Assembly (NCBI GenBank): GCA_963712115.1
Contig: CAVQGX010000043.1
Coordinates: forward strand, 1-64,000
Direction of reading: 5' to 3'
Length of the DNA stretch: 64,000 nt
Source of the DNA: an uncultured delta proteobacterium
Lineage (GTDB): Bacteria; Desulfobacterota; Syntrophobacteria; BM002
The position numbers and the translations under genes were made by a program. The notes under the pieces are model-generated. The model ran no database searches. It saw nothing but the letters and a program-made list of their open reading frames with translations, and was not told the DNA's origin. Shown one piece after another: positions 39,973 through 52,741 of the stretch (positions are counted from its first letter, which is position 1; every line of letters begins with the position of its first letter).

Positions 39973-40713
39973 TTATCTTTTGCTTCTTTTGAGGCGCCGC
40001 TCGCTGCTTCTCTGGCGCTTACGCTCTTTATCCTTTTTCCTCCTCTCTCTTCTCATTGGATCAGGGTCCCTGGCGGGGTCAAGCAAAAAAGAACCAATCA
40101 TTTCCGTTACATCCACTTTGCGAGGCTTAGGGGCTTTCGGTCGTGAGACCTTAGTGGGCTTGGGAGATTCGCGGAGAGGCGGGCCACTCAGGAAGGGGGG
40201 AGGGAGAGTTCTTACCAAATAGAGGAATTCGCCACAAAGAGAAAAGGCGTGGCCTTTATCGTGGGCCTGAGCCGCATGTATGGTCAAAAGTATCGGTTTG
40301 GGGTCACGACGTCTACCAATACGCAAGGCTATTTCCTCTGTTGTGGCCAAGGGCACATAGGGACGGCCTGCCGGCCTGAGCCCATGCTTGAGGATCACGG
40401 GGTAAGCCTTTCTTCTTGCGGCGTAAAAGAGCAATCGAGGCGGGACAGTGGTTGAACTTATCTGCTCCCTCGGTTGTTTGGGTTTTATATAATTTTCCTC
40501 TAGGGTGAAGGCTGACTCAAATTGGGAGTAAGCCAATTCTTGCAGATGGCTCAAACGGATGTGCTTCAAGCCTTCTTCCTCATGAAGGGCCCACAGGAGC
40601 TCTTTGATAGGGAGGGAGCCATCATTGTCCAAAAATAGCCCGAATTCATCAGGTCGGTAGAGGAGGATGTACTCGATGATTTTTCCTAGTTCCTGAAGCT
40701 GGTATTTCCTCAA
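39973..40713 (-). CDS. RNA 2'-phosphotransferase (KptA/Tpt1)-like protein with divergent motifs
   Basis: RPDEFGLFLDNDG, PPRLLFY, ILKHGLRP, IGRRR..KPILLTI.A..A. Confidence 0.75.
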   Translation of the reverse strand: MRKYQLQELGKIIEYILLYRPDEFGLFLDNDGSLPIKELLWALHEEEGLKHIRLSHLQELAYSQFESAFTLEENYIKPKQPREQISSTTVPPRLLFYAARRKAYPVILKHGLRPAGRPYVPLATTEEIALRIGRRRDPKPILLTIHAAQAHDKGHAFSLCGEFLYLVRTLPPPFLSGPPLRESPKPTKVSRPKAPKPRKVDVTEMIGSFLLDPARDPDPMRRERRKKDKERKRQRSSERRLKRSKR

Positions 40714-40772
40714 TGTTTGGTCCCAGAGTTCTGTGCAAGCAAATTGTTGGTCAATTTATCTACCTTTTATTC

Positions 40773-40801
40773 TTGACACAATCCCGCCTATTCTCTATGG
40801 T
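40773..40801 (+). promoter_or_regulatory. sigma70 promoter of the leader-liv-paaK-ior operon
   Basis: TTGACA-N17-TATGGT. Confidence 0.7.
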
Positions 40802-40843
40802 ATAGCATCATTCATCCGAAAGGCAAGGAGTCGGGAGTACTTC

Positions 40844-40927
40844 ATGGCCTTCTCCGCGAGACAGACCGTCCTCCAGAGATATTATTACTTTTTTTATTAT
40901 TTTAGTGGGGAGACGTCTGTCCACTAG
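40844..40927 (+). CDS. Tyr/Phe-rich attenuator leader peptide, 27 aa (MAFSARQTVLQRYYYFFYYFSGETSVH)
   Basis: GGGAG RBS 6 nt before ATG; eight consecutive Tyr/Phe codons at 40880-40903; overlapping alternative hairpins. Confidence 0.85.
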   Translation: MAFSARQTVLQRYYYFFYYFSGETSVH

Positions 40928-41023
40928 CCCTGTTCAACCTATAGAATCGAGGCCGGGGGCAGACTCAACTGCCTGCGGCTTTTTTGTCTGCAAAGAGGCC
41001 GCCACATGAAAGCGGCTTTTTTT
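40860..41023 (+). promoter_or_regulatory. transcription attenuator with two terminators
   Basis: Pairings 1:2 (40860-74/40907-21), 2:3 (40915-29/40951-64), 3:4 terminator (40951-85), 4:5 (40975-86/40991-41002), 5:6 terminator (40992-41023). Confidence 0.8.
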
Positions 41024-41193
41024 GTTTGATTCTGGCCTCGAAAGAGTTTTTTGTGGAGCTTAAGCCTGGACCATCTAAGGTGCGAATTTTTTGATATTGA
41101 CAAAATCTAAGAAACACGGGAAAGGAGGTGACACCCCATCCACATTCGGTGTAAGAGATTATGATGCCATATGACCTAGAGGAGGGAAAATCA

Positions 41194-42354
41194 ATGAAGA
41201 TAAAGGGAAGATCGATATGGATAGCGCTGGCGTTAACCATCTCACTTGTTTTGGTATTTTCGTGCGCTAAAGAGAAAGAGCCTTATAAAGTGGGCGCCGT
41301 TTTCTCAGCCACTGGCCGTGCCTCGTTCCTGGGTGAACCCGAAAAAAAGACTGTCGAGATGATCGCCGAGGCAATAAACAAGGTTGGTGGTATCAATGGC
41401 CATCGACTGGAGGTCATACTCTATGATGACGAAAGTGACGAAACCAAAAGCGTCCTTGCGGTTAAACGGCTAATTAAGAAAGACAATGTCCCCGTGATCA
41501 TCGGACCCAGCCTCAGTGGTAACACTATGGCGGTGATCAAAGTTGCGAATGATGAGCAGATCCCCTTGGTTTCCTGTGCGGCCAGCAACAAGATTGTGAC
41601 TCCGGTGGCAGAGCGAAAGTGGGTCTTCAAGGTACCGCAGTCGGATAGCCATGCGGTTGAAAAAATTTATGATTATCTGCTGAAAAATGGCATGACTAAG
41701 ATTGCCATCATGAGCGTTTCCACTGGGTTCGGTGCCAGCGGTCGCGAAGAACTGCTGCGACTAGCTCCTGAAGTTGGCATAGAGATACTGGCGGACGAAC
41801 GCTATGGCCCTAAGGATACTGATATTACCGCTCAACTTACTCGCATCCGCGGCACCGGAGCACAGGCAATTGTCAACTGGTCTGTGGGACCCACCCAGGT
41901 TCTGGCAGTAAAAAACTGGAAAGATCTGGGAATGACATCCATTCCGTTCTTTCAGAGTCACGGCTTTGGGAGTCACAAAAACATCGAGCTAGCGGCAGGT
42001 GCCGCCGAAGGCGTATTTTGTCCTCTGGGCAAGGTCAATATTCCTCTACTTGTTGCTGATGACGATCCACAAAAGAAGGTAATAATGCTTTACAACGAAG
42101 CCTATGAGCAAAAGTACAATGAACCCATATCGTCCTTTGGCGGGCATGCCTGGGATTCGCTGAACCTAGTCATCGATGCCATGAGGAGTGTGGGACCCGA
42201 TTCAGCTAAAATTAGGGACTACATCGAGAACCGACAAAAATTCATCGGTCAGCACGGCGTGTTCAATTTCTCTCCCACCGATCACAATGGCCTTACCAAG
42301 GAGGCCTTTGTAATGGTAGTGGTGAAGGAAAACACTTGGGCCTTGGCTCCTTAG
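41194..42354 (+). CDS. livK: ABC transporter substrate-binding lipoprotein (LivK superfamily)
   Basis: Lipobox VFSC, TGRASFLGEPEK, GGING, YDDESD, QSHG, GGHAWD; GAGGAGG RBS. Confidence 0.9.
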   Translation: MKIKGRSIWIALALTISLVLVFSCAKEKEPYKVGAVFSATGRASFLGEPEKKTVEMIAEAINKVGGINGHRLEVILYDDESDETKSVLAVKRLIKKDNVPVIIGPSLSGNTMAVIKVANDEQIPLVSCAASNKIVTPVAERKWVFKVPQSDSHAVEKIYDYLLKNGMTKIAIMSVSTGFGASGREELLRLAPEVGIEILADERYGPKDTDITAQLTRIRGTGAQAIVNWSVGPTQVLAVKNWKDLGMTSIPFFQSHGFGSHKNIELAAGAAEGVFCPLGKVNIPLLVADDDPQKKVIMLYNEAYEQKYNEPISSFGGHAWDSLNLVIDAMRSVGPDSAKIRDYIENRQKFIGQHGVFNFSPTDHNGLTKEAFVMVVVKENTWALAP

Positions 42355-42380
42355 AGTTCAATAAGAATGCGATGGCGATG

Positions 42381-42416
42381 GAAGCCTCTCCAGTCCTTTG
42401 GTCAGGAGAGGCTTTC
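42381..42416 (+). terminator. hairpin after the SBP gene (partial terminator or mRNA stabiliser)
   Basis: gaagcctctcc ... ggagaggctttc. Confidence 0.5.
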
Positions 42417-42430
42417 TGTTGAAGATTGCT

Positions 42431-42788
42431 TAGCCCGGATGTTTCATGAATCCGCCTAAGGCGGACCACGGATATGGTCGTCCTTCTCTCCGAGCTGTAG
42501 GCTCTACGAGCCCGAGGCCGTGCGTCCTCGGGTGTCGGCCCCTGCGACGTACCATTCAGGTACGCCTCGGCTTCGATCTTGGATTTGGGATTTCGGATCT
42601 CGGATTTTTGAGTACAATTGGTGATATAGAACTTAACAGTTCAGATCTCACCATTTGCTCTCTGGTTCTCGCGAACTCTTCAGCAAATTTTAAATCCGCA
42701 TTCCGCAATCCGCATTCCGCAATCGTCGACCCGGTGGCACGTCCATCTTCGTGGTCTCGTGACACCAATTCATGAAACATCCGGGCTA
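42431..42788. mobile_element. MITE copy 3, reverse orientation, with a nested ~150-bp heptamer-flanked insert
   Basis: tagcccggatgtttcatgaat ... attcatgaaacatccgggcta; TA at both ends. Confidence 0.85.
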
Positions 42789-42820
42789 GAACTGGACAAA
42801 AGCTTCAAGTTGTTGTTGCT

Positions 42821-43723
42821 ATGGAAAGAATTTCCTTAATAGGACAGCTCACTCAGTATCTTTTCACTGGAATCACCGTGGGAAGCATTTACGCTTTGGT
42901 GGCCGTGGGCTTTAATATCATCTACAACGTTACAGAAATAATTAACTTCGCCCAGGGCGAGTTTGTCATGCTGGGCGGGCTTATTATGGTCTTTTTCACC
43001 GCTGCGGCTAAACTGCCTCTGCCAATAGCTTTTGTTCTGACAGTCACGGCGGTCACCGGTGTGGGAGTTTTGATGGAGAGGTTTACCATTAACCCACTCA
43101 AAAATGCCACCGTATTGACGATGATTATCGTCACCATCGCTGTTTCAATTCTCTTTAAGGGAATTGCTATGTTTGTTTGGGGCAAAGATCCGTATATTAT
43201 CCCACCATTTAGCGGAAGCGAACCAATATTCATCCTCGGAGCAGCTATTCAAACCCAGACATTATGGGTGCTGCTCATAACTGCGGTAGTGGTAGTGCTG
43301 CTGACCCTCTTTTTTAAGAAAACACGATATGGTAAAGCCATGCTGGCATGTGCCGATGATCCCGAAGCGGCTCGCCTAGTAGGCATTAGAGTTAACATTA
43401 TGATTTTAATTTCTTTTGCCTTGAGTGCGGCCATTGGTGCAGTTGCGGGAGCCATAATCACTCCCATATCCCTGATGGAATACGACCGAGGTGCCCTTTT
43501 AGCCTTAAAGGGTTTTGGCGCTGCTGTGATGGGTGGCTTGGGAAGTTTTTATGGAGCAGTGGTGGCTGGTATTTTTCTTGGAATTATCGAATCCCTATGC
43601 GCTGGTTTTGTTTCCTCAGGCTACAAGGATGCTGTAGCGCTTCTTCTACTGCTCTTGGTTTTATACGTTCGTCCAAGTGGTTTGTTTGGCAATGTAGAGG
43701 CGAGCAAAATAAAGGAGTTCTAG
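42821..43723 (+). CDS. livH: ABC permease LivH
   Basis: GSIYALVAVGF, INFAQGEF, KGFGAAVMGGLGS. Confidence 0.92.
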   Translation: MERISLIGQLTQYLFTGITVGSIYALVAVGFNIIYNVTEIINFAQGEFVMLGGLIMVFFTAAAKLPLPIAFVLTVTAVTGVGVLMERFTINPLKNATVLTMIIVTIAVSILFKGIAMFVWGKDPYIIPPFSGSEPIFILGAAIQTQTLWVLLITAVVVVLLTLFFKKTRYGKAMLACADDPEAARLVGIRVNIMILISFALSAAIGAVAGAIITPISLMEYDRGALLALKGFGAAVMGGLGSFYGAVVAGIFLGIIESLCAGFVSSGYKDAVALLLLLLVLYVRPSGLFGNVEASKIKEF

Positions 43724-43733
43724 TACTTAGGAC

Positions 43734-44690
43734 ATGCAGAAATCCAATCTAAAAATGCTTTTTTGCTTGATTATCTTTCTTGCCCTGTTTCCGGCGGTGG
43801 TTTTTAATGTGAGGGCAATTGGCCACTATCTCGACGTGATGATATTTGTCGGTATCTACAGTTTAATAAACATGGGACTAAGCCTTCTCATGGGTTATGC
43901 GGGTCAGATCTCCCTTGGACACGCAGCCTTTTTTGGTCTGGGAGCTTACACTTCAGGGATATTATGCACAAAACTTTCCCTGTCTCCATGGCTAGCCATG
44001 GTTGCCGGCGTTTTCCTGACAGCTCTGGTTGCATACATTGTGGGCGTTCCGTCGCTGAAACTAAAAGGGCACTATCTTGCCATGGCCACCCTTGGTTTTG
44101 GTGTTATCGTCTACATTTTTTTCAATGAGGAGGTGGCCCTCACCGGTGGTCCCTCTGGATTTTCAGACATTCCGGGGTTAACCATCTTTGGTTTAGACCT
44201 AAATAATGATCTCTATTACTATATCCTGGTTTGGTCGCTGGTGTTGCTTACCCTGGTTTTCTCGCTCAATGTGATTAATTCCCGTATAGGCAGGGCCTTG
44301 CGTTCTTTGCACGACAGTGAAGTTGCAGCAGACGCAATGGGGGTTGAAACCTCGAGATTCAAAGTCATCATTTTTGTCTTAAGCGCTGCATATGCCTCCC
44401 TTGCCGGAAGTCTCTACACCCATTACGTAGGTTTCTTGAGCCCCAGTTCTTTTGATCTCTTCCTTTCTATAAAACTGGTAATGATGGTAGTGGTGGGTGG
44501 CATGCATAACATCTGGGGAGCGCTTCTCGGTACCTGGCTGCTTACTTTTTTGGGGAACGAGTGGCTTCATGTTTTCCGCGATTTTGATATTCTAGTCTAT
44601 GGAGCTGTTCTCCTGGCTATTGTAATGTTTCTGCCTGAAGGTTTGGTTGATCTAACTCCGAAAATGAGACGGTTATGGAAGCGAAGCTGA
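43734..44690 (+). CDS. livM: ABC permease LivM
   Basis: GYAGQISLGHAAFFGLGAY, GHYLAMATL, TGGPSG. Confidence 0.92.
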   Translation: MQKSNLKMLFCLIIFLALFPAVVFNVRAIGHYLDVMIFVGIYSLINMGLSLLMGYAGQISLGHAAFFGLGAYTSGILCTKLSLSPWLAMVAGVFLTALVAYIVGVPSLKLKGHYLAMATLGFGVIVYIFFNEEVALTGGPSGFSDIPGLTIFGLDLNNDLYYYILVWSLVLLTLVFSLNVINSRIGRALRSLHDSEVAADAMGVETSRFKVIIFVLSAAYASLAGSLYTHYVGFLSPSSFDLFLSIKLVMMVVVGGMHNIWGALLGTWLLTFLGNEWLHVFRDFDILVYGAVLLAIVMFLPEGLVDLTPKMRRLWKRS

Positions 44691-44812
44691 AAGCCTGAGC
44701 TTGGCGGCGCCATGCGCGCCCCGGCTTTCCTTTTGTGCTCTTTGTGAACCTCGCCGTTGGGATCCCATGTTAAGAATTGTTTGCGGCAGCCTGAGATTTT
44801 GGTGAGATTTAA

Positions 44813-45607
44813 ATGGCTTCTGAGAATTTCAACACTTTCCTGCGCGTAGAGGACCTGCGCAAATCATTTGGTGGCGTGCGAGCTCTAAAGGGGTTAAGCT
44901 TCACGGTAGCTTCCGGAATGATCAAGGCAATTATCGGACCAAACGGGGCGGGAAAGACAACACTATTCAATATAATTAGTGGGGTTTTCCCACCCAACAA
45001 TGGATCCATTATCTTTGAAGGTGTGCCTATCGAGGGCAGGAAGTCCCGGGAGATTGCCCGCCTAGGTGTTTCCCGGACTTTTCAAAACGTGGAAGTATTT
45101 GGTCGTATGACTGTGCTGGAAAATGTAATGGTGGGAAGGCACATCCAGAGTCGGGCCGGAATAATCAGTACAGGTCTCAAACTGCCTTGGATGAGGAGGG
45201 AGGAGCGACAGATCCGGAACGGTGCAAGGGATTACCTGGAATTCGTAGGGCTAGAACACAAAGCAGGCGAGTTAGCTGGTAATCTGCCTTTAGGGGAACA
45301 AAAGCTTCTTGAGATAGCCCGAGCATTGGCCACAGAACCAAAAATACTGTTGCTGGACGAGCCAGCTGGGGGGCTGAATACCAGAGAGACTGAAGAGTTG
45401 GCGGCATTGATCCGGCGGATTCTGGAAAGGGGAATCACAGTAGTGTTGGTCGAGCACGACATGAATCTTGTAATGGACATTTCGGACGAGATCGTTGTCA
45501 TGAACTTTGGTGAAAAAATCGCTGAAGGCAAGCCGAAACAAATAAAGAATGATCCCGTGGTGGTCGAAGCTTATTTAGGGGAAGAGGTTGATTATTCAGA
45601 TCTCTAG
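44813..45607 (+). CDS. livG: ABC ATPase LivG
   Basis: GPNGAGKTT, RTFQN, LLDEPAGG, VEHDM, EAYLG. Confidence 0.93.
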   Translation: MASENFNTFLRVEDLRKSFGGVRALKGLSFTVASGMIKAIIGPNGAGKTTLFNIISGVFPPNNGSIIFEGVPIEGRKSREIARLGVSRTFQNVEVFGRMTVLENVMVGRHIQSRAGIISTGLKLPWMRREERQIRNGARDYLEFVGLEHKAGELAGNLPLGEQKLLEIARALATEPKILLLDEPAGGLNTRETEELAALIRRILERGITVVLVEHDMNLVMDISDEIVVMNFGEKIAEGKPKQIKNDPVVVEAYLGEEVDYSDL

Positions 45608-45721
45608 CGCGAAGCGCATTGCGCTTAGAGCTAGGCATATACCTTGAGCCTTATGCCCCTGGCGTTTGACTCTCCGCTCATCGAACACAACGCAAGATAT
45701 GTGGTAAGTGAAAACTAAACC

Positions 45722-46450
45722 ATGCTAACACTTAAAAGTGTCCACACTTACTACGGCAATATTCACGCTCTTAGGGGTGTTTCTCTTCATGTAAACCAAG
45801 GCGAAATAGTGACATTAATAGGCGCCAACGGAGCCGGTAAGACTACGGTTTTAAAAACAATTTCCGGAATTACCCCTGCCAGTCGCGGTTCCATTACTTT
45901 CGAAGGGAGGGACTTAACTAGGGTGGCAGCTGAGGAGATCGTCCGGGCCGGCATTTCTCACGTTCCAGAAGGACGGAAGGTCTTTTCCACCCTAAGCTTG
46001 CGAGATAACCTTGAAATGGGCGGATTTATCCGTAGGGACAAGAAAGAAGTACAAGCGGATATGGATCGTTTCAGAGAGAAGTTTCCCATTCTCTCTGACC
46101 GATGGAATCAGATGGCAGGTACCCTTAGTGGTGGTGAACAACAAGTCTTGGCTATAACTCGAGCCTTAATGGCGAGGCCAAGGCTTCTAATACTGGACGA
46201 ACCTTCCATGGGTCTTTCACCTTTGCTAGTCAAGGAAACGTTTAAAATCATAAAAACATTGCGAGAAGAGGGAACCACCATTTTGCTCATCGAACAGAAC
46301 GCCCGTGCCGCCCTTCACATAGCAGATCGTGGCTATGTGCTGGAAACTGGCAAAATCGTCCTCCAGGGGAAATGCCGGATGCTTCTCGAGCACGAAGAAG
46401 TAAAGCGGGCCTATCTCGGCAAAGGCTATCGGGAAGTTTGGGAGGACTGA
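45722..46450 (+). CDS. livF: ABC ATPase LivF
   Basis: GANGAGKTT, VPEGR, LSGGEQQ, LDEPSMGL, EQNA. Confidence 0.93.
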   Translation: MLTLKSVHTYYGNIHALRGVSLHVNQGEIVTLIGANGAGKTTVLKTISGITPASRGSITFEGRDLTRVAAEEIVRAGISHVPEGRKVFSTLSLRDNLEMGGFIRRDKKEVQADMDRFREKFPILSDRWNQMAGTLSGGEQQVLAITRALMARPRLLILDEPSMGLSPLLVKETFKIIKTLREEGTTILLIEQNARAALHIADRGYVLETGKIVLQGKCRMLLEHEEVKRAYLGKGYREVWED

Positions 46451-46455
46451 GAAGC

Positions 46456-46598
46456 TAAATTCGAATATCTAATATCGAAATCCTAAACAAATTCAAATGA
46501 CCAAAATCCAAATGACCGAAACACTGACGCGTTTAGAACATTGGAAAATTTGAATTTCGGATTTGTTTCGGATTTCGTGCTTCGGATTTCGGATTTAG
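46456..46598. repeat. AAATCCG-family inverted hairpin element, copy B
   Basis: Collinear with 18787-18937. Confidence 0.8.
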
Positions 46599-46655
46599 TT
46601 CAGGATCGATCCCTGGAATGAACGTTTCTTCTGATCTGACGAGGATTAAAGGACT

Positions 46656-47960
46656 ATGAAGATTTGGGATGCGGATTATGAATGTATGCCACGGGACGAG
46701 CTAGCCCAGTTGCAGCTTGAGCGCCTACAGGCAACGCTCAATCGGGTTTACAAGAACGTCGCTTTTTACCGGAAGAAATTTGATGAGATTGACTTTGAGC
46801 CTGAGGACCTTGTTGAGCTGAATGATCTGGGGAAACTGCCTTTCACCTGCAGCAGGGATCTCAGTGATGCTTACCCCTATGATCTTTTCGCCGTTCCCTT
46901 GCGAGAGGTGGTAAGGGTCCATTCTTCCTCAGGTGCCACCAAGCCAGTTGTTGTAGGTTATACTAGACAGGACCTTAAAAATTGGAGCGAGCTTGTAGCC
47001 CGCGTTCTTACCGCCGGAGGCGTCACGGCTGACGATGTGGTACAAGTGACGCTGAATTATGGACTTCTCACCGGAGGCTTGGGACTCCACTATGGAGCCG
47101 AGCTCATCGGTGCGTCAGTACTTCCCACCTCAGTTGGGCGTACTGAACGGCAGGTAAAAATTATGCAAGACTACCGTACCACGGCTTTAGTGGCTACTCC
47201 TTCTTATGCTCTGGTTATAGCTGATCGCATGGAAAGGATGGGCGTTGATGCGAAGACACTTACGCTCAAGTTTGCCATGCTTGCCGGGGAGCCATGGTCT
47301 GAGGAGATGCGACAGGAAATTGAAGCAAGATTGTACGTCAAGGCTACGGACAATTACGGCCTCAGCGAGATAATGGGGCCTGGGGTGGCTGGCGAATGTC
47401 TTTATCAGGCCGGAATGCATCTGAACGAGGATCATTTCATTTTTGAGGTAGTGGATCCAAAAACGGGAGAGAATTTGCAGCCCGGGGAAGTTGGGGAACT
47501 GATCATAACAACTGTTACCAAAGAGGCATTTCCTCTGATCAGGTTTCGTACAGGTGATCTCTGCTCTATGCAATCTGAGACTTGCCAGTGCGGTCGGAGT
47601 CTGGCCCGCATGAGCAGGGTGCTCGGCCGTACCGACCAGGTAATCATAGTAAAAGGCATAAATATCATTCCGAGTCGCGTGGGTGATCTTCTTGAGGAAG
47701 TCCTAGGAAGCAAGCCCCCTTACCAGTTGGTGGTGGACAGAAAAGGCCACCTAGACAGCCTTACGGTGCAAGTTGAGGTTTCTGAGGACCTATTCTTTGA
47801 CAAAATGCGGGAGCAGCGCTCCTTGATAGAGAGAATGGGTGAAAAGGTCGCGGGGGGAATCGGAGTTACCCCAAAAATTATTTTGGTTGAACCTGGGTCC
47901 ATCAAGCGGGAGAAAGAGACTGCCTTCAAAGTGGTGGATTACAGGAAACTATCCAAATGA
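46656..47960 (+). CDS. paaK: phenylacetate (arylacetate)-CoA ligase
   Basis: HSSSGATKP, YGLLTGGLGLHYGAE, GEPWSE, DNYGLSEIMGPGV, RFRTGD, GRTD. Confidence 0.93.
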   Translation: MKIWDADYECMPRDELAQLQLERLQATLNRVYKNVAFYRKKFDEIDFEPEDLVELNDLGKLPFTCSRDLSDAYPYDLFAVPLREVVRVHSSSGATKPVVVGYTRQDLKNWSELVARVLTAGGVTADDVVQVTLNYGLLTGGLGLHYGAELIGASVLPTSVGRTERQVKIMQDYRTTALVATPSYALVIADRMERMGVDAKTLTLKFAMLAGEPWSEEMRQEIEARLYVKATDNYGLSEIMGPGVAGECLYQAGMHLNEDHFIFEVVDPKTGENLQPGEVGELIITTVTKEAFPLIRFRTGDLCSMQSETCQCGRSLARMSRVLGRTDQVIIVKGINIIPSRVGDLLEEVLGSKPPYQLVVDRKGHLDSLTVQVEVSEDLFFDKMREQRSLIERMGEKVAGGIGVTPKIILVEPGSIKREKETAFKVVDYRKLSK

Positions 47961-47973
47961 CATTGTACTTGTA

Positions 47974-48076
47974 GTCCGTGGCCTGTTGTCAAGAGCGGCA
48001 TAGGGCATAGAGCATGAGGCATAGGGCAAAATCTCAAATTCAAAACCGCTGTGCTCTTGACGCTCTGCGCTTTGCG
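47974..48076 (+). repeat. left arm of a ~100-bp inverted repeat flanking iorA
   Basis: Matches the reverse complement of 50017-50112. Confidence 0.8.
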
Positions 48077-48139
48077 GCCAACGAAGTGAGCTCAACTGAC
48101 TACGGACCGGGAAAAATTAGCAAACTGAGAGGTAAAAAA

Positions 48140-49999
48140 ATGCATGAACTGCTGGCAGCCGAACCGGGTAGCAAGAGATTACTCCTGGGAAACGAGGCTA
48201 TTGTCCGAGGGGCTCTTGAGGCAGGTATCTCCTTTGCCACCACCTACCCCGGAACTCCCTCCTCGGAGATCGGCGACAATTTCTATCGAATATCCCAAGA
48301 AACAGATATTTATTTCGAGTATTCGGTAAATGAGAAAGTAGCACTAGAAACTGCAGCTGCGGCTTCGACTTCTGGTCTGCGCACCATGTGCAGCATGAAG
48401 CATGTTGGCTTGAATGTAGCGTCCGATGCTCTTATGACTTTGGCTTATGTAGGGGTAAAGGGAGGCATGGTCATAGTCAGTGCTGACGATCCCTCAATGC
48501 ACTCCAGCCAAAACGAACAGGACAACCGTTTCTACGCCAGATTCGCCGGAATACCTATGCTCGAGCCAGCCAATTCCCAGGAAGCCTTGGATATGGCCCG
48601 GGCCGCTTTTGCGCTGTCCGAGTCCCATGGTATTCCAGTCCTGCTGCGCACCACTACGCGAGTAAATCACAGCCGGTCCGTTGTAGAGGTGGGACCATTG
48701 CAGGACTCGAGGGTGAAAGGGAGCTTCATAAAGGATCCCCTTAACCTCGTGCCGGTGCCCATGGTGGCAAGAAGGCTTCACGTTGAACTACTCGAAAAGC
48801 TAAAAAAATTACGAGTGGAGGCTGATAGTTCGTCTTTCAACAGAGTTGAAGGGGAGGGGACCTGGGGAGTGGTAACCAGTGGGGTGAGTTACAACTATGT
48901 CAAGGATGCCATTCGAGAATTAAATATTGCCGACCAAGTTCAGGTGCTAAAACTGGGAATGACCTATCCATTTCCAGAGGCACTCTGCTTGGACTTCATT
49001 GGAAAAGTTAAGAAAGTTCTGGTGGTTGAAGAGTTGGAGCCCTTCTTGGAAGACATGCTCAAGGTGACAGCTCAGGAACAAGGGCTGACAATCAAAATTA
49101 AGGGTAAGGGTGATGAATTACTGCCCCGTTACTTCGAATTCGATCCAGTCCTGGTCAAGTCAGCCGTTGCCCGGTTTTTCCAACTGGATTATGAGCCACC
49201 GAAGGTGGAAATGAGATCGGATCTTCCTCAGCGACCGCCTAATCTTTGCGCGGGTTGTCCGCACAGAGCCAGTTATTATGCGGTGAGACAGGCATTTGGC
49301 GAAGGGGGTGCTATTTACCCATCTGACATAGGTTGTTACACTCTGGGGTTACTGCCGCCTCTCGCTGCAGCCGACTATCTCCTTTGTATGGGATCCAGTG
49401 TTTCCAGCGCTGGCGGTTTTTCCAAGGCTCAGGACCAGCCTGTAGTGGCTTTTGTTGGCGATTCGACCTTCTTCCACTCGGGTGTTACCGGGCTTATTAA
49501 TGCTGTCCAGAATGAACACAATTTTATCCTGGTAATTTTGGACAACGGCACAACCGCCATGACAGGACAGCAGCCCCATCCTGGGGTGGAACTCACTGAA
49601 GAAGGGCGCCAGCCTCCCAAAGTGGATCTTAAGGCATTAGTTCGAGGTTGCGGTGTAGATCGGGTAGTTGTGGTTAATCCCCTGCAGGTTGAAAAGACAG
49701 TCGCCACTATAAAAGAGGTTATGCAAGACAAACCTGGTGTAAAGGTGGTCATCTCAAAATCACCCTGTCCGCTATTCGAAAGACGTGTCACTGGCAAGAA
49801 ACAGAAGGTTGTTTTTAGGGTGACTAACGAGTGCGATATGTGTAGAAGGTGCCTGGATGAGCTCGGATGTCCGGCCTTTACCTACTGTGAGGATGAGAAT
49901 GAGTGCGCTTTTATTGCAATCGATGAACATTTATGCAGCGGTTGCAGCGTCTGTAAGCAAATTTGTCACGCAATAAAGCCGAAGAAGAAGAGTGCTTAA
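48140..49999 (+). CDS. iorA: indolepyruvate:ferredoxin oxidoreductase alpha subunit
   Basis: GNEAIVRG, YPGTPSSE, MKHVGLN, SSQNEQD, CAGCPHR, GDSTFFHSG TPP motif, C-terminal ferredoxin Cys motifs. Confidence 0.95.
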   Translation: MHELLAAEPGSKRLLLGNEAIVRGALEAGISFATTYPGTPSSEIGDNFYRISQETDIYFEYSVNEKVALETAAAASTSGLRTMCSMKHVGLNVASDALMTLAYVGVKGGMVIVSADDPSMHSSQNEQDNRFYARFAGIPMLEPANSQEALDMARAAFALSESHGIPVLLRTTTRVNHSRSVVEVGPLQDSRVKGSFIKDPLNLVPVPMVARRLHVELLEKLKKLRVEADSSSFNRVEGEGTWGVVTSGVSYNYVKDAIRELNIADQVQVLKLGMTYPFPEALCLDFIGKVKKVLVVEELEPFLEDMLKVTAQEQGLTIKIKGKGDELLPRYFEFDPVLVKSAVARFFQLDYEPPKVEMRSDLPQRPPNLCAGCPHRASYYAVRQAFGEGGAIYPSDIGCYTLGLLPPLAAADYLLCMGSSVSSAGGFSKAQDQPVVAFVGDSTFFHSGVTGLINAVQNEHNFILVILDNGTTAMTGQQPHPGVELTEEGRQPPKVDLKALVRGCGVDRVVVVNPLQVEKTVATIKEVMQDKPGVKVVISKSPCPLFERRVTGKKQKVVFRVTNECDMCRRCLDELGCPAFTYCEDENECAFIAIDEHLCSGCSVCKQICHAIKPKKKSA

Positions 50000-50016
50000 G
50001 GTCTGTTGTCTAGATT

Positions 50017-50112
50017 CGCAAAGCGCAGAGCGCCAGGCGCATAGCGGTTTTGAATTTAATATTTTACCCTAGGCTCTATGCTCTGTGCCGCTTTTGACAA
50101 CCGACCGCGGAC
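50017..50112 (-). repeat. right arm of the inverted repeat flanking iorA
   Basis: Shares aaattcaaaaccgct and cgctctgcgctttgcg with the left arm. Confidence 0.8.
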
Positions 50113-50183
50113 GCTTGACGCATGGATGTACACGCCCATGGTTGTGACGGATCTGCAATTAGTCGACAACTGAGGAACAAGGT

Positions 50184-50765
50184 ATGGAAAGCTGGCGTAT
50201 TTTTTTTACTGGTGTAGGCGGGCAGGGTACCTTGCTGGCCACCAGGGTGTTAGGTGAAGCGGCGCTAGTCTCTAATATTCCTGTGGTGGTGAGTGAGGTT
50301 CACGGTATGGCCCAGCGCGGAGGGGTGGTCGAGTCGGCAGTGGTGCTGGGCGAGGTACAGAGTCCAGTTATATCAGATGGTGAAGTAGACATCCTTATGG
50401 CCTTTGAACCGTTAGAGGCTTTGAGGGCAGTACGAAAGTGCTCGTCTCGTAGCCTGGTGATTTGCAACACTAGCCCTGTAGCTCCTTTTAGTGTATCCAG
50501 TGGCAGGGATCGATATCCAGATGTCTCTAGTATGATGAAAGCTATATGGAGCCAAGTAAGCAATCTCATTGCCTATGACGCCAGAGCTCTGGCCCGCGAA
50601 GCCGGCTCGGAGCTCTCGGTAAATATTGTGATGCTTGGAACCCTTATGCGCCATGCAACAATGCCCTTCGATGAGAAGGTGGTAAAGAAGGTTCTCAATA
50701 CTAGGACAAAGAAATCTTTTCTGGAGATAAATCTGAAGGCATTTGATTTGGGTTATGAGGTATGA
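50184..50765 (+). CDS. iorB: indolepyruvate:ferredoxin oxidoreductase beta subunit
   Basis: GVGGQG, SEVHGMAQRGG, FEPLEALR, NIVMLG, NLKAF. Confidence 0.94.
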   Translation: MESWRIFFTGVGGQGTLLATRVLGEAALVSNIPVVVSEVHGMAQRGGVVESAVVLGEVQSPVISDGEVDILMAFEPLEALRAVRKCSSRSLVICNTSPVAPFSVSSGRDRYPDVSSMMKAIWSQVSNLIAYDARALAREAGSELSVNIVMLGTLMRHATMPFDEKVVKKVLNTRTKKSFLEINLKAFDLGYEV

Positions 50766-51283
50766 TTAGACAAAAAACGTTAATCTTACTAGGATTACCA
50801 CTCCTCTGGCTTGTTCTTGCCAACGCCACTTGCAACAACAGAAAGGGCGAGGAAGATTTGGTCAACTCTTATAAGGTGGTGCGATTCCATTTGTCAGAGT
50901 GTCGCAATATGGGTGCAGATAGCTTGGATCCAGTTGGCCTGGAGGAGGCCATGCGTCTCACTGAGGAGGTGGGTGGAATGTTGGACAAGGGCAATTGGAC
51001 CCAGGCGAGTGAGGCCATTGCTCAATTGGAACAAACCGTCGGGTTTCTCCTCGAGCAGATGAAAAGCTGGGACCCAGATGAAGACGGCCTGAGTAACTAC
51101 GCAGAGTATATGTTGTACGGGACCTCTTGGGCAGATGGTGACACCGATGGGGATGGATATTTCGATGGTAGTGAAATTCTACATTTCGAAACGGATCCTC
51201 TGGATCACTGTGGAGTACCAATAGGTTTCCCTCTGGAGACTACAGTCCAACGTGACTGCCCGGCACTGGAGAAACTGAGGTAG
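50762..51283 (+). CDS. putative lipoprotein with Ca-binding DxDxDG (TSP3-like) repeats
   Basis: Signal peptide ending ATC; DPDEDGL..E..YGT, DTDGDGYFDG.E. Confidence 0.65.
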   Translation: MIRQKTLILLGLPLLWLVLANATCNNRKGEEDLVNSYKVVRFHLSECRNMGADSLDPVGLEEAMRLTEEVGGMLDKGNWTQASEAIAQLEQTVGFLLEQMKSWDPDEDGLSNYAEYMLYGTSWADGDTDGDGYFDGSEILHFETDPLDHCGVPIGFPLETTVQRDCPALEKLR

Positions 51284-51446
51284 GGATTGAATGCAGATCA
51301 TTGAAAAAGAGGTGACGAGGTCCGCAAGATTACTGTATAATCGAGTAAAAGCACTAAATCATAAGCATCCAGCACCTTCGAAAAGGTCAACTTAACAGGT
51401 CAGACAGAGGGCATAAGAACCCTTTTGTCTTGTGAAGGAACATCTT

Positions 51447-51698
51447 ATGAAATGCGAGACGTGCGGCGCGCTGAACGATGCTGATGCTGCTTTTTGCAAA
51501 GGATGTGGAAGTAAACTTGGGCTCAGTGAGTGTTCTAAGTGCGGTGCGCCAACTGATCCAGACGCATCGTTTTGTTCGAAGTGTGGATTTGAGCTTGCTG
51601 CCAATGTTCCGTCCAATAGCAAGACTTGTCAAAGCTGTGGTTTTGTCAACCCACCGGCTACAGTGTACTGTAAGAGGTGTAATCAGAAGATAATATAG
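51447..51698 (+). CDS. zinc ribbon repeat protein (DZANK-like)
   Basis: Three CxxC-N/T...F/YCxxC units. Confidence 0.8.
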   Translation: MKCETCGALNDADAAFCKGCGSKLGLSECSKCGAPTDPDASFCSKCGFELAANVPSNSKTCQSCGFVNPPATVYCKRCNQKII

Positions 51699-51767
51699 TT
51701 GATTTTATCAAGTGAAATGAGGTAATAATCCCAGCCAGGAGAACTCAACCCCTCGGGACACTTAAAG

Positions 51768-52517
51768 ATGGAATTTAAGCGTACTGTAGAATACGAGGAT
51801 GGAGAGCTCATTCTAATGGAAGGAGGGGAGAGCGACCGGGATATTTATGTTCTTCTGGAAGGTCAGGCAAAGGTGACCAAGGAGACCGACAAAGGGCAAG
51901 TGACGCTCGCTTTGCTCGAGGAAGGTGACATTTTCGGCGAGGTTTCATTCTTGGCCCAGAGGGTTGGAGCTCGCTCTGCAACTATTGCCGCTAGGGGTAA
52001 AGTAAAAATTGGGATTTTAGACCATGAAAAGTTATCAGGTGAGTACAAAGCACTCTCACCCCTCTTTCAGCAAATGCTTAAAGAGTTGGCTGAGCGCTTC
52101 AGCAAGACTACGGCCTTGGCAGCTCGGCTTGCCGCAAGGCGTATGGATAGACCGAGCCTGGAAAGGCGTGAGGCAAAGCGGAATCCCTTGCAGGACCTGC
52201 GCATTCAGGTAACCTACTCACTGGAAGGGGGCGTTAGGACGGAAACCTACCAAGGTATACTTCTAGACTTGGCGAGTACCGGCATGGGTCTAGCCTTGCT
52301 TACAAACAGTTTTAGTGAAGCAACCCACCGTCTAGGGGCCCAGTTCAACTTTCAGTTTACCCTTCCCGGCAAACCCATGATTAAGGTGGCGGGCCATATT
52401 GCTTGGGCACGCGCAATGGGTGGAAGGAAAGCCCGCATGGGGGTAAAATTCAGCGAACCCAATCCTTACCTCCGTAAACTCATCGAGGAATTTCTCCAAA
52501 GTATAGCTGACCATTAG
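51768..52517 (+). CDS. cyclic nucleotide-binding plus PilZ domain protein
   Basis: GDIFGE..RSATI (cNMP); REAKR, DLASTG, MGVKF (PilZ). Confidence 0.85.
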   Translation: MEFKRTVEYEDGELILMEGGESDRDIYVLLEGQAKVTKETDKGQVTLALLEEGDIFGEVSFLAQRVGARSATIAARGKVKIGILDHEKLSGEYKALSPLFQQMLKELAERFSKTTALAARLAARRMDRPSLERREAKRNPLQDLRIQVTYSLEGGVRTETYQGILLDLASTGMGLALLTNSFSEATHRLGAQFNFQFTLPGKPMIKVAGHIAWARAMGGRKARMGVKFSEPNPYLRKLIEEFLQSIADH

Positions 52518-52741
52518 AAGGGTTTCACCCGCCATCTAAAACATTTATTTCACCGGCCTGCATTTAGTATAGAGGGATAAGTTAGGTGTGCCAGTGCGTC
52601 TTATAGCGCAAAGCACAATGGTCTTTTTACATTTGACATCTATAAGAATAGTCCAGGAGAGCTTTTATTCTAAGAATGGACTGGTGGTAAATGTGGAATG
52701 TGTTTACTGCTCAGTGCCTGGTTCGTAGTGCCTAGAGTTCC

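Follow-up and report, generated by a model that had tools for sequence, protein, structure and literature searches.

A predicted Tyr/Phe-responsive leader precedes a putative aryl-acid salvage operon in an uncultured member of the Desulfobacterota

We analyzed a 64,000-nucleotide (nt) stretch of DNA, hereafter the window, from an uncultured delta proteobacterium of the Desulfobacterota (contig CAVQGX010000043.1 of GenBank assembly GCA_963712115.1, positions 1-64000; C43 in our numbering of the contigs). The genes at 41194-50765, all on the + strand, encode the binding protein, two permeases and two ATPases of an ABC importer, followed by a PaaK-family ligase and the IorA and IorB subunits of an indolepyruvate:ferredoxin oxidoreductase (IOR). 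A leader rich in codons for tyrosine (Tyr) and phenylalanine (Phe) precedes them, and we propose that the array serves the salvage of aryl acids into these two amino acids. An earlier reading of the same DNA, the first-pass annotation, had described co-oriented importer genes, paaK and iorAB, and this is the content and order that we found. The assembly is a 4.9-Mb metagenome-assembled genome (MAG) in 70 contigs, estimated to be 94.4% complete and 5.99% contaminated. In public databases, its closest relatives are uncultured Desulfobacterota that carry the labels Deltaproteobacteria, Syntrophobacterales or Desulfobacteraceae bacterium.

The importer has the composition of the HAAT/LIV type, with a Peripla_BP_6 binding protein, two BPD_transp_2 permeases and two ATPases ending in a BCA_ABC_TP_C tail. 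The ligase consists of an AMP-binding and an AMP-binding_C_2 domain. IorA carries TPP and POR_N domains and is the sole match above the TIGR03336 cut-off in the whole genome; IorB contains a POR domain (E 1.8e-34) and scores just under the TIGR03334 cut-off.

The leader sits ~350 nt upstream of the binding-protein gene, outside the interval first given for the operon, and comprises a promoter-like block, a short open reading frame (ORF) and two terminators (Table 1). Translation of 40844-40927 confirmed the earlier claim that it holds no tryptophan (Trp) codon. Its Tyr/Phe run is the longest run of F, Y or W residues in a six-frame scan of the 4.9-Mb genome, poly-T and (GGT)n repeats excepted. 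Among 2000 random 700-nt stretches, none contained a small ORF with at least 7/8 aromatic residues, 12 reached at least 6/8 and 86 at least 5/8. The run in the leader exceeds chance. Two other candidates were rejected. A run of nine Trp codons on contig C37, considered as a trp leader, is a (GGT)n simple repeat inside another sequence, and the conserved TTGACA at 41097, considered as a second promoter, is followed by no -10 hexamer when the sequence is read by eye. Rfam holds leader families of this sort, such as Phe_leader and Trp_leader. A scan of 40700-41250 matched no Rfam leader family up to E = 10 and returned four sub-threshold matches to small RNAs and small nucleolar RNAs, and a scan of the window at the gathering threshold returned one tRNA and nothing else.

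Table 1. Coordinates of the leader, the operon and other features; positions refer to the window unless a contig is named.
Feature	Coordinates	Strand	Remarks
Promoter-like TTGACA-17 nt-TATGGT	40773..40801	+	10/12 matches; block almost invariant in 12 aligned relatives
Leader peptide ORF, MAFSARQTVLQRYYYFFYYFSGETSVH and stop, 27 codons	40844..40927	+	GGGAG 6 nt ahead of ATG
Segment 1 core, GACAGAC	40860..40866	+	pairs with segment 2, encloses Tyr/Phe run
Regulatory-codon run, 8 consecutive (5 Tyr, 3 Phe)	40880..40903	+	from leader translation
Segment 2 core, GTCTGTCC	40915..40922	+	pairs with segment 1, or with segment 3 (antiterminator)
Terminator T1 (segments 3 and 4), U6 tract	40949..40985	+	predicted site 40957-40974; -23.0 kcal/mol; 95.5% of cells paired in 12 relatives
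Terminator T2 (segments 5 and 6), U7 tract	40992..41023	+	hairpin prediction; 97.7% of cells paired in 12 relatives
Substrate-binding protein (Peripla_BP_6), signal peptide	41194..42354	+	longest ORF starts at 41161
Permease, LivH-like (BPD_transp_2)	42821..43723	+	LivH equivalog 142 bits, cut-off 379
Permease, LivM-like (BPD_transp_2)	43734..44690	+	Liv equivalog 173 bits, cut-off 366
ABC ATPase, LivG-like, BCA_ABC_TP_C tail	44813..45607	+	283 bits, cut-off 362
ABC ATPase, LivF-like, BCA_ABC_TP_C tail	45722..46450	+	284 bits, cut-off 441
PaaK-family aryl-acetate-CoA ligase (AMP-forming)	46656..47960	+	TIGR02155 493.3 bits, cut-off 646.3
IorA, indolepyruvate:ferredoxin oxidoreductase alpha subunit	48014..49999	+	TIGR03336 790 bits, cut-off 650.9
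IorB, indolepyruvate:ferredoxin oxidoreductase beta subunit	50184..50765	+	TIGR03334 198.8 bits, cut-off 205.8
173-residue ORF, signal peptide (secreted or lipoprotein-like), TSP3 calcium-binding repeat	50762..51283	+	4-nt overlap with iorB stop
Dispersed-repeat insertion between binding-protein gene and first permease gene	42430..42790		contains spurious 109-residue ORF
1.23-kb repeat region and second copy	contig C33, ~139776-141050 and 158002-159227		synteny comparison

Classical leader-peptide attenuators of enterobacteria include those of trpL-trpE, pheL-pheA, pheST and hisL. Like them, the leader described here joins a short ORF bearing the sensed codons to alternative 1:2, 2:3 and 3:4 pairings and an intrinsic terminator, in an arrangement in which a stalled ribosome should favor the antiterminator. 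Unlike them, it would sense mainly Tyr, it has two tandem terminators joined by a 4:5 relay, and the genes under its control encode an importer, a ligase and IOR, not a canonical biosynthetic enzyme. The six RNA segments can combine as 1:2, 3:4 and 5:6, so that both terminators form, or as 2:3 and 4:5, so that neither does; the calculated duplex energies are -19.9 (1:2), -14.8 (2:3), -22.8 (3:4), -20.2 (4:5) and -16.3 kcal/mol (5:6). To mimic stalling, we masked the ribosome at each of codons one to five of the run and cut the transcript off ahead of the 3' arm of T1; in every case the minimum free energy fold was an extended 2:3 helix (-24.4 kcal/mol). Moving the mask to the stop codon allowed T1 to form. 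Enforcing the 2:3 helix led the 3' arm of T1 to pair with the 5' arm of T2, and T2 did not form.

The pairing scheme is retained in related genomes. Across 12 aligned relatives, 85% of the alignment cells are paired in the terminated state and 90% in the read-through state, compared with 44 to 60% when the partners are slid, and the 8 core pairs of the 2:3 antiterminator are kept in 10 to 12 of the 12 sequences. The design also recurs with different letters in other families. In the clearest leaders of families f4 (L039, L042) and f5 (L041, L043), read directly from the sequences, segment 2 is still complementary to the 5' arm of the first hairpin, and the 3' arm of that hairpin to the 5' arm of the next; leaders of families f6 and f3 (L047, L044) look similar. 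In silico, the leader thus has the classical geometry, in which the antiterminator depends on a stall, and adds to it a relay by which the second terminator is disarmed. The earlier prediction that it opens on Tyr/Phe starvation holds to this extent: the leader is conserved and folds with the geometry of an attenuator opened by starvation, from which read-through itself would follow.

The association between leader and operon extends beyond the immediate relatives of the MAG. We compared 75 loci from public genomes, 16 of which encode a binding protein at least 69% identical to that of the window and, being kin, do not count as independent. A Tyr/Phe-rich leader lies 210 to 425 nt upstream in 15 of these 16, and the upstream sequence of the other is only 256 nt long. 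Three of the remaining 59 loci reach 5/8 aromatic residues; in one the ORF precedes the binding-protein gene, and in the other two it precedes paaK. The YYYFFYY(F/Y) run occurs only in the closest genomes, its place being taken elsewhere by YYYYYY, YYYYYYY, YYYYYFYY, YYFYYY or YYYYCYY. In most relatives the signal is Tyr alone, and the Phe codons are specific to the sub-clade of the window.

An additional set of 15 longer loci (families f1 and f3 to f6) allowed the leader to be related to the content of the array. The full array through iorB is present in eight (L126, L127, L128, L131, L134, L135, L139 and L140, from families f1, f5 and f6), and all eight carry a Tyr-dominated leader, even though the leader peptides are otherwise unrelated between the three families (for example, MRTQFSFNHIGYYYYGYLRRSAL, MKAATAHYYYYYGYLRRSALT and MQSIIFREYYYLYTYPGRSAAYPL, each followed by a stop codon). 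In two other loci the contig ends early, one of them with a YYYYYCYY run and the other without a leader. In two more (L130 and L132), a leader that is F-rich or weak precedes the importer genes and paaK, and no iorAB lies within 13 kb. The last three have no leader; two consist of two binding-protein genes with paaK and one of a binding-protein gene alone. Farther afield, the same type of binding protein adjoins PaaK-family genes in MAGs of the Latescibacterota, Verrucomicrobiota and Spirochaetia, sometimes together with iorAB.

A separate observation concerns four Desulfobacteria-type MAG loci in which paaK lies ahead of the importer genes (L072, L073, L078 and L086). Small F-rich ORFs such as MRFRFFYFCFFSFLGDFFF precede paaK in these loci and are possible Phe-type leader candidates.

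The same genome places similar leaders before genes of canonical aromatic amino acid synthesis. On the - strand of contig C7, from ~30336 down to 16147 (L016 16337-2147), the leader MKKNLNRQKNLVNWYWWWYVCVGVYPLPGE (WYWWWY) and two relay terminators precede a biosynthetic operon with the order trpE-G-D-C-F-B-A (trpG, trpC, trpF and trpA assigned from position and size only), a DeoC-type aldolase gene of the ADH synthase type, DHQ synthase II, aroD, aroE, aroA and tyrA. The corresponding duplex energies are -23.6 (2:3), -23.2 (3:4), -20.4 (4:5) and -20.3 kcal/mol (5:6). On contig C17 (46421-48524; L017 2422-4524), a Phe-rich leader, MRMGATYSLVVRAGRFFFFCFFRTVRPAS (FFFFCFF), and a terminator precede a gene for a fusion protein of 625 residues that combines DAHP synthase (with an FXD domain), prephenate dehydratase and an ACT domain. 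Inspection by eye upstream of a second prephenate dehydrogenase gene, on contig C18, showed no obvious aromatic leader. Control of the trp-aro-tyrA and DAHP synthase-prephenate dehydratase operons by leaders indicates that the organism governs true aromatic biosynthesis by leader peptides.

The leader also sets the operon apart from other PaaK genes of the genome. Four more PaaK-linked clusters are present, on contigs C7 (3852-7189), C64 (1071-7488), C26 (106029-110684) and C33 (3460-4746); three carry a paralogous binding-protein gene and the fourth is a lone PaaK-family gene. We found neither IOR nor an aromatic leader at any of the four, so that among the five clusters checked only the one bearing IOR has a leader. 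The leaderless clusters probably handle other organic acids.

The nearest solved relatives of the importer and the ligase suggest what these proteins might act on. The seven best matches of the binding protein among sequences of the PDB (E 3.5e-44 to 2.8e-35) are aromatic-compound binders of Rhodopseudomonas palustris and one unnamed entry, and the first amino-acid binder follows at E 2.6e-26. A single-sequence AlphaFold model of the protein had a predicted local distance difference test score (pLDDT) of 34 and was left unused, whereas a model built from a 33-row alignment of homologues reached a pLDDT of 93.4. Foldseek searches with the latter returned the same group of aromatic-acid binders at ranks 1 to 14, with titles naming 3-phenylpyruvic acid (4DQD), p-coumarate (4F8J, 4EYO) and caffeate (4EYQ), and LivJ at rank 15. 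CouP (RPA1789), whose structure 4JB0 contains bound ferulate, and its kin are components of HAAT-type ABC importers for aromatic carboxylates (PMC3610893). The R. palustris binders (4JB0, 4DQD, 4F8J, 4EYO, 4EYQ and 3SG0) share fold and subfamily with the window protein and are its best matches in sequence and structure, yet the systems they belong to feed the catabolism of lignin monomers. LivJ/LivK-LivHMGF of Escherichia coli (LIV-I/LS) has the same five-component architecture and the same Pfam families, but all five transporter proteins of the window score far under the Liv cut-offs (the binding protein 70.8 bits against a cut-off of 477), and the Leu/Ile/Val binders rank below the aromatic-acid binders. 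On sequence and model, the binding protein groups with the aromatic-acid binders rather than with LivJ/LivK, a placement from which we infer its ligand. The first-pass annotation had likewise read the importer as something other than a branched-chain amino acid transporter, and both the relatives and the missed cut-offs agree with it. The ligase matches phenylacetate-CoA ligase 2Y27 over its full length (E 4.5e-111) and the related structure 2Y4O at 1.2e-106. Both are PaaK of Burkholderia cenocepacia, which starts aerobic phenylacetate catabolism; the window ligase, in contrast, lies under the PaaK cut-off and next to IOR.

There is precedent for a synthetic use of such enzymes. Older work reported that rumen and phototrophic bacteria make Phe from phenylacetate. 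In Methanococcus maripaludis, aryl acids feed a second pathway for aromatic amino acids via IOR (Porat et al., as cited in PMC4162585), and PMC6737245 describes several methanogens that assimilate phenylacetate and indoleacetate by reductive carboxylation with a phenylacetyl-coenzyme A (CoA) ligase and Ior. The same paper cautions that neither the physiological role nor the direction of Ior can be concluded merely from the presence of its genes. Like M. maripaludis, the organism studied here combines IOR and an aryl-acetate-activating ligase, known in this case from genes, with a de novo pathway, and its genome also has archaeal-type ADH synthase and DHQ synthase II genes. It differs in being a bacterium and in having the genes in one operon, with a dedicated ABC importer, under a Tyr/Phe attenuator. 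The context points to synthesis rather than breakdown.

We therefore propose the following model. A sigma-70-like promoter would drive transcription of the 27-codon leader. A shortage of charged tRNA-Tyr or tRNA-Phe would cause the ribosome to stall in the run and cover segment 1, leaving segment 2 free to pair with the 5' arm of T1; the released 3' arm of T1 would then pair with the 5' arm of T2, and RNA polymerase would read on. When supply is good, a ribosome reaching the stop codon would cover segment 2, and both terminators would form. Once expressed, the HAAT-type importer would take up aryl-acetic acids, chiefly 4-hydroxyphenylacetate and phenylacetate, and the PaaK-family ligase would convert them to CoA thioesters. 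Running in reverse, IOR would use reduced ferredoxin and CO2 to produce 4-hydroxyphenylpyruvate and phenylpyruvate, from which an aminotransferase encoded elsewhere would make Tyr and Phe.

From regulation, context and homology, we put the probability that this is a Tyr/Phe-starvation-induced aryl-acid salvage operon at about two in three. The anabolic role proposed in the first-pass annotation, aryl-acid salvage into Phe and Tyr, was favored in every part that could be tested computationally, though the support is indirect. We hold a more specific version with less assurance, on odds only a little better than even: that a Tyr-specific six-segment relay attenuator over two tandem terminators marks a dedicated bacterial operon in which scavenged aryl-acetates are carboxylated with CO2 and reducing power from ferredoxin to make Tyr (and Phe), that this design is shared by several families of Desulfobacterota from sediments, and that with it the sequence by itself reveals which way IOR runs in the cell.

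Several points weigh against the salvage model. We infer what the binding protein binds, which substrates the ligase takes, in which direction IOR runs and that starvation leads to read-through. Identity between the binding protein and the aromatic-acid binders is no more than 25 to 28%, and since an arylpyruvate occupies one of the close structures, a keto acid might be what is imported. Both PaaK and IorB score under their equivalog cut-offs. No aminotransferase gene lies in the operon, as the earlier annotation had stated, or next to it. The intergenic gaps are long (466, 122, 114, 205 and 184 nt) and two contain dispersed repeats, which makes internal signals possible within the operon. 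For the RNA, the terminated fold is slightly more stable at equilibrium than the read-through fold (-51.8 against -48.3 kcal/mol), and the equilibrium fold of the full leader still favors T1 under a ribosome mask, the antiterminator appearing only in the nascent-transcript fold; the switch would thus need kinetic control, as in the classical cases. Neither RNA state showed covariation beyond that of shuffles in the alignment of 12 relatives, and the case for the RNA therefore rests on conservation, energy and a design re-invented in other families. Metatranscriptome contigs are found over the flanks as well as over the operon. Finally, most genes of the de novo pathway are present, so the operon is not needed for prototrophy.

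Those metatranscriptome contigs came from four runs of two studies and were aligned to 40000-52600, at 90 to 99% identity. Coverage takes in the flanks and reaches 30 of 30 bins in two of the runs and 28 and 29 bins in the remaining pair. Contigs bridge livG-livF, livF-paaK, iorA-iorB and iorB with the adjoining TSP3 ORF, and one runs from the terminators into the binding-protein gene; such contigs indicate presence only, not ends, strand or single transcripts, and may include DNA carry-over.

The de novo pathway itself is largely in place. The genome encodes DAHP synthase, both kinds of DHQ synthase, aroD, aroE, EPSP synthase, prephenate dehydratase and two prephenate dehydrogenases, and chorismate synthase (aroC) and shikimate kinase (aroK) were not found in the 94.4% complete assembly. 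Among relatives, 38 of 40 have chorismate synthase. In a complete genome of the same genus (G002, L141 1-10386), aroK adjoins aroC, and the two belong to a block of six or more ORFs that is matched nowhere in the assembly. Synteny with G002 picks up again at C33:139776. Beside this point lies a 1.23-kb sequence of which the same contig carries a second, 99.35% identical copy, and this pattern points to either a collapsed or mis-joined repeat or a repeat-mediated deletion. That the trp, pheA-type and tyrA genes are intact speaks for an assembly gap at aroK-aroC. The suggestion in the first-pass annotation to look for missing pheA, tyrA or shikimate genes thus had a mixed outcome: aroK and aroC were not found, but pheA-type, tyrA and most shikimate genes are there. 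The organism is not visibly an aromatic auxotroph, and the operon would be a means of salvage beside the de novo route, not a replacement for it. Only in the boldest form of the proposal, in which the strain truly lost aroK-aroC at the insertion-sequence-like repeat, would it depend on the operon for Tyr and Phe.

Other functions for the locus can be weighed against the same evidence. We consider it unlikely, though more probable than the other alternatives, that starvation induces the import of free Tyr and Phe or of arylpyruvates, with PaaK and IOR in a side role such as the disposal or interconversion of excess aryl compounds. A leader that opens on Tyr/Phe shortage would suit an importer of amino acids or keto acids equally well, the HAAT family includes amino-acid binders, and one of the closest structures holds 3-phenylpyruvate; moreover, L130 and L132 keep importer and paaK behind an aromatic leader without iorAB within 13 kb. 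Such a function leaves unexplained why paaK and iorAB belong to the leader-controlled unit in three families, and an IOR working oxidatively would consume arylpyruvate at the very time of a Tyr shortage. The amino-acid binders are also more distant from the window protein than the aromatic-acid binders are.

Slightly less plausible still is a broader salvage of acyl acids, in which the enzymes would accept several organic acids (aryl-acetates, indoleacetate and perhaps branched-chain acids) and the Tyr/Phe leader would be one of several inputs. The predicted nature of the substrate ranges, the four additional PaaK-family ligase genes (three beside paralogous importers) and the further conserved blocks between T2 and the binding-protein gene leave room for this view. 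The leader runs of the relatives are, however, almost all Tyr or Phe with no Trp, and the paralogous clusters lack both IOR and leader.

AMP-forming ligases run in reverse in syntrophs, and a catabolic or fermentative operon would draw on this: IOR would oxidize aromatic amino acids to aryl-acetyl-CoA and the reversed ligase would recover energy, or else aryl-acetates would be activated for anaerobic ring degradation. The familiar role of IOR is indeed the oxidative one that it has in peptide fermentation (PMC6737245). We nonetheless regard catabolism as improbable. A geometry that couples stalling to read-through should raise expression when Tyr and Phe are scarce, which is the wrong sign for catabolism, and the same device stands before trp-aro-tyrA and the DAHP synthase-prephenate dehydratase fusion of this genome. 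Nor are genes of downstream degradation linked to the operon, and IOR has no role in the degradation of aryl-acetates. Least credible of all, and hardly tenable, is an untranslated small ORF followed by ordinary terminators of an upstream transcript with no sensing of amino acids. The absence of covariation and of an Rfam family match and the failure of metatranscriptome contigs to show ends would accommodate it. Against it, the upstream gene is divergent and leaves nothing upstream to terminate, conservation extends to promoter, start codon, aromatic run and stop but not to the peptide, which differs between families, and ORFs of this kind arose in 0/2000 background stretches.

Further features surround the salvage operon and its leader. 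Conserved blocks are also found in the aligned relatives between T2 and the binding-protein gene. Among them is a perfect Shine-Dalgarno-like sequence, AAGGAGGTGA, at 41122-41131, ~60 nt before the start of the binding-protein gene. In the most distant aligned relative (L064), AAGGAGGTGA is that gene's own ribosome-binding site, and the closer genomes have ~55 extra nt and a second site. The site at 41122-41131 may be a relic or a standby site.

Two of the intergenic gaps contain dispersed repeats. The stretch at 42355-42820 yields 293 blastn matches in the genome, and that containing the second repeat, at 46490-46596, yields 142. A 109-residue ORF at 42446-42775 was rejected as a gene because it lies inside the dispersed repeat and has no counterpart in relatives. 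Alignments of the metatranscriptome contigs have loose ends at 42430/42431 and 42788-42791, with high depth. The insertions at 42430-42790 and 46490-46596 are missing from close relatives and from some of these contigs. The operon thus tolerates repeat insertions between its genes. At its other end, the ORF with the TSP3 repeat keeps its position next to iorB throughout the family, at 44 to 82% identity, and may be the last gene of the operon. The flanking genes are a divergent, Tpt1-like gene upstream and a gene for a cNMP-binding/PilZ protein downstream. A small ORF with repeated CxxC zinc-ribbon motifs (51448-51698) lies between the operon and the latter.

A literature search that did not extend to supplements or to most subscription journals returned no account of an attenuator with Tyr codons in its leader, of such a leader ahead of paaK or ior genes, or of this operon, and the text of Rodionov et al. 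2004 (Genome Biol 5:R90) contains none of the terms 'leader peptide', 'aromatic' or 'tyrosine'. New here would be a Tyr-specific attenuator of the classical type with a two-terminator relay and its coupling to a methanogen-type aryl-acid route in a bacterial importer operon. If the model is true, a Tyr-sensing member and the two-terminator relay design would be added to the repertoire of classical attenuators. IOR and PaaK genes are common in the genomes and MAGs of anaerobes, where they are usually annotated as functions of amino-acid fermentation or phenylacetate degradation. A conserved leader of the starvation type would offer a sequence-level means to call the direction of IOR, the cell in these sediment bacteria treating the operon as a supply line for Tyr and Phe. 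Aryl-acetates, fermentation end products of other microbes, would then be cross-fed back into protein with CO2 fixed along the way, a route that metabolic models of such communities would need to include.

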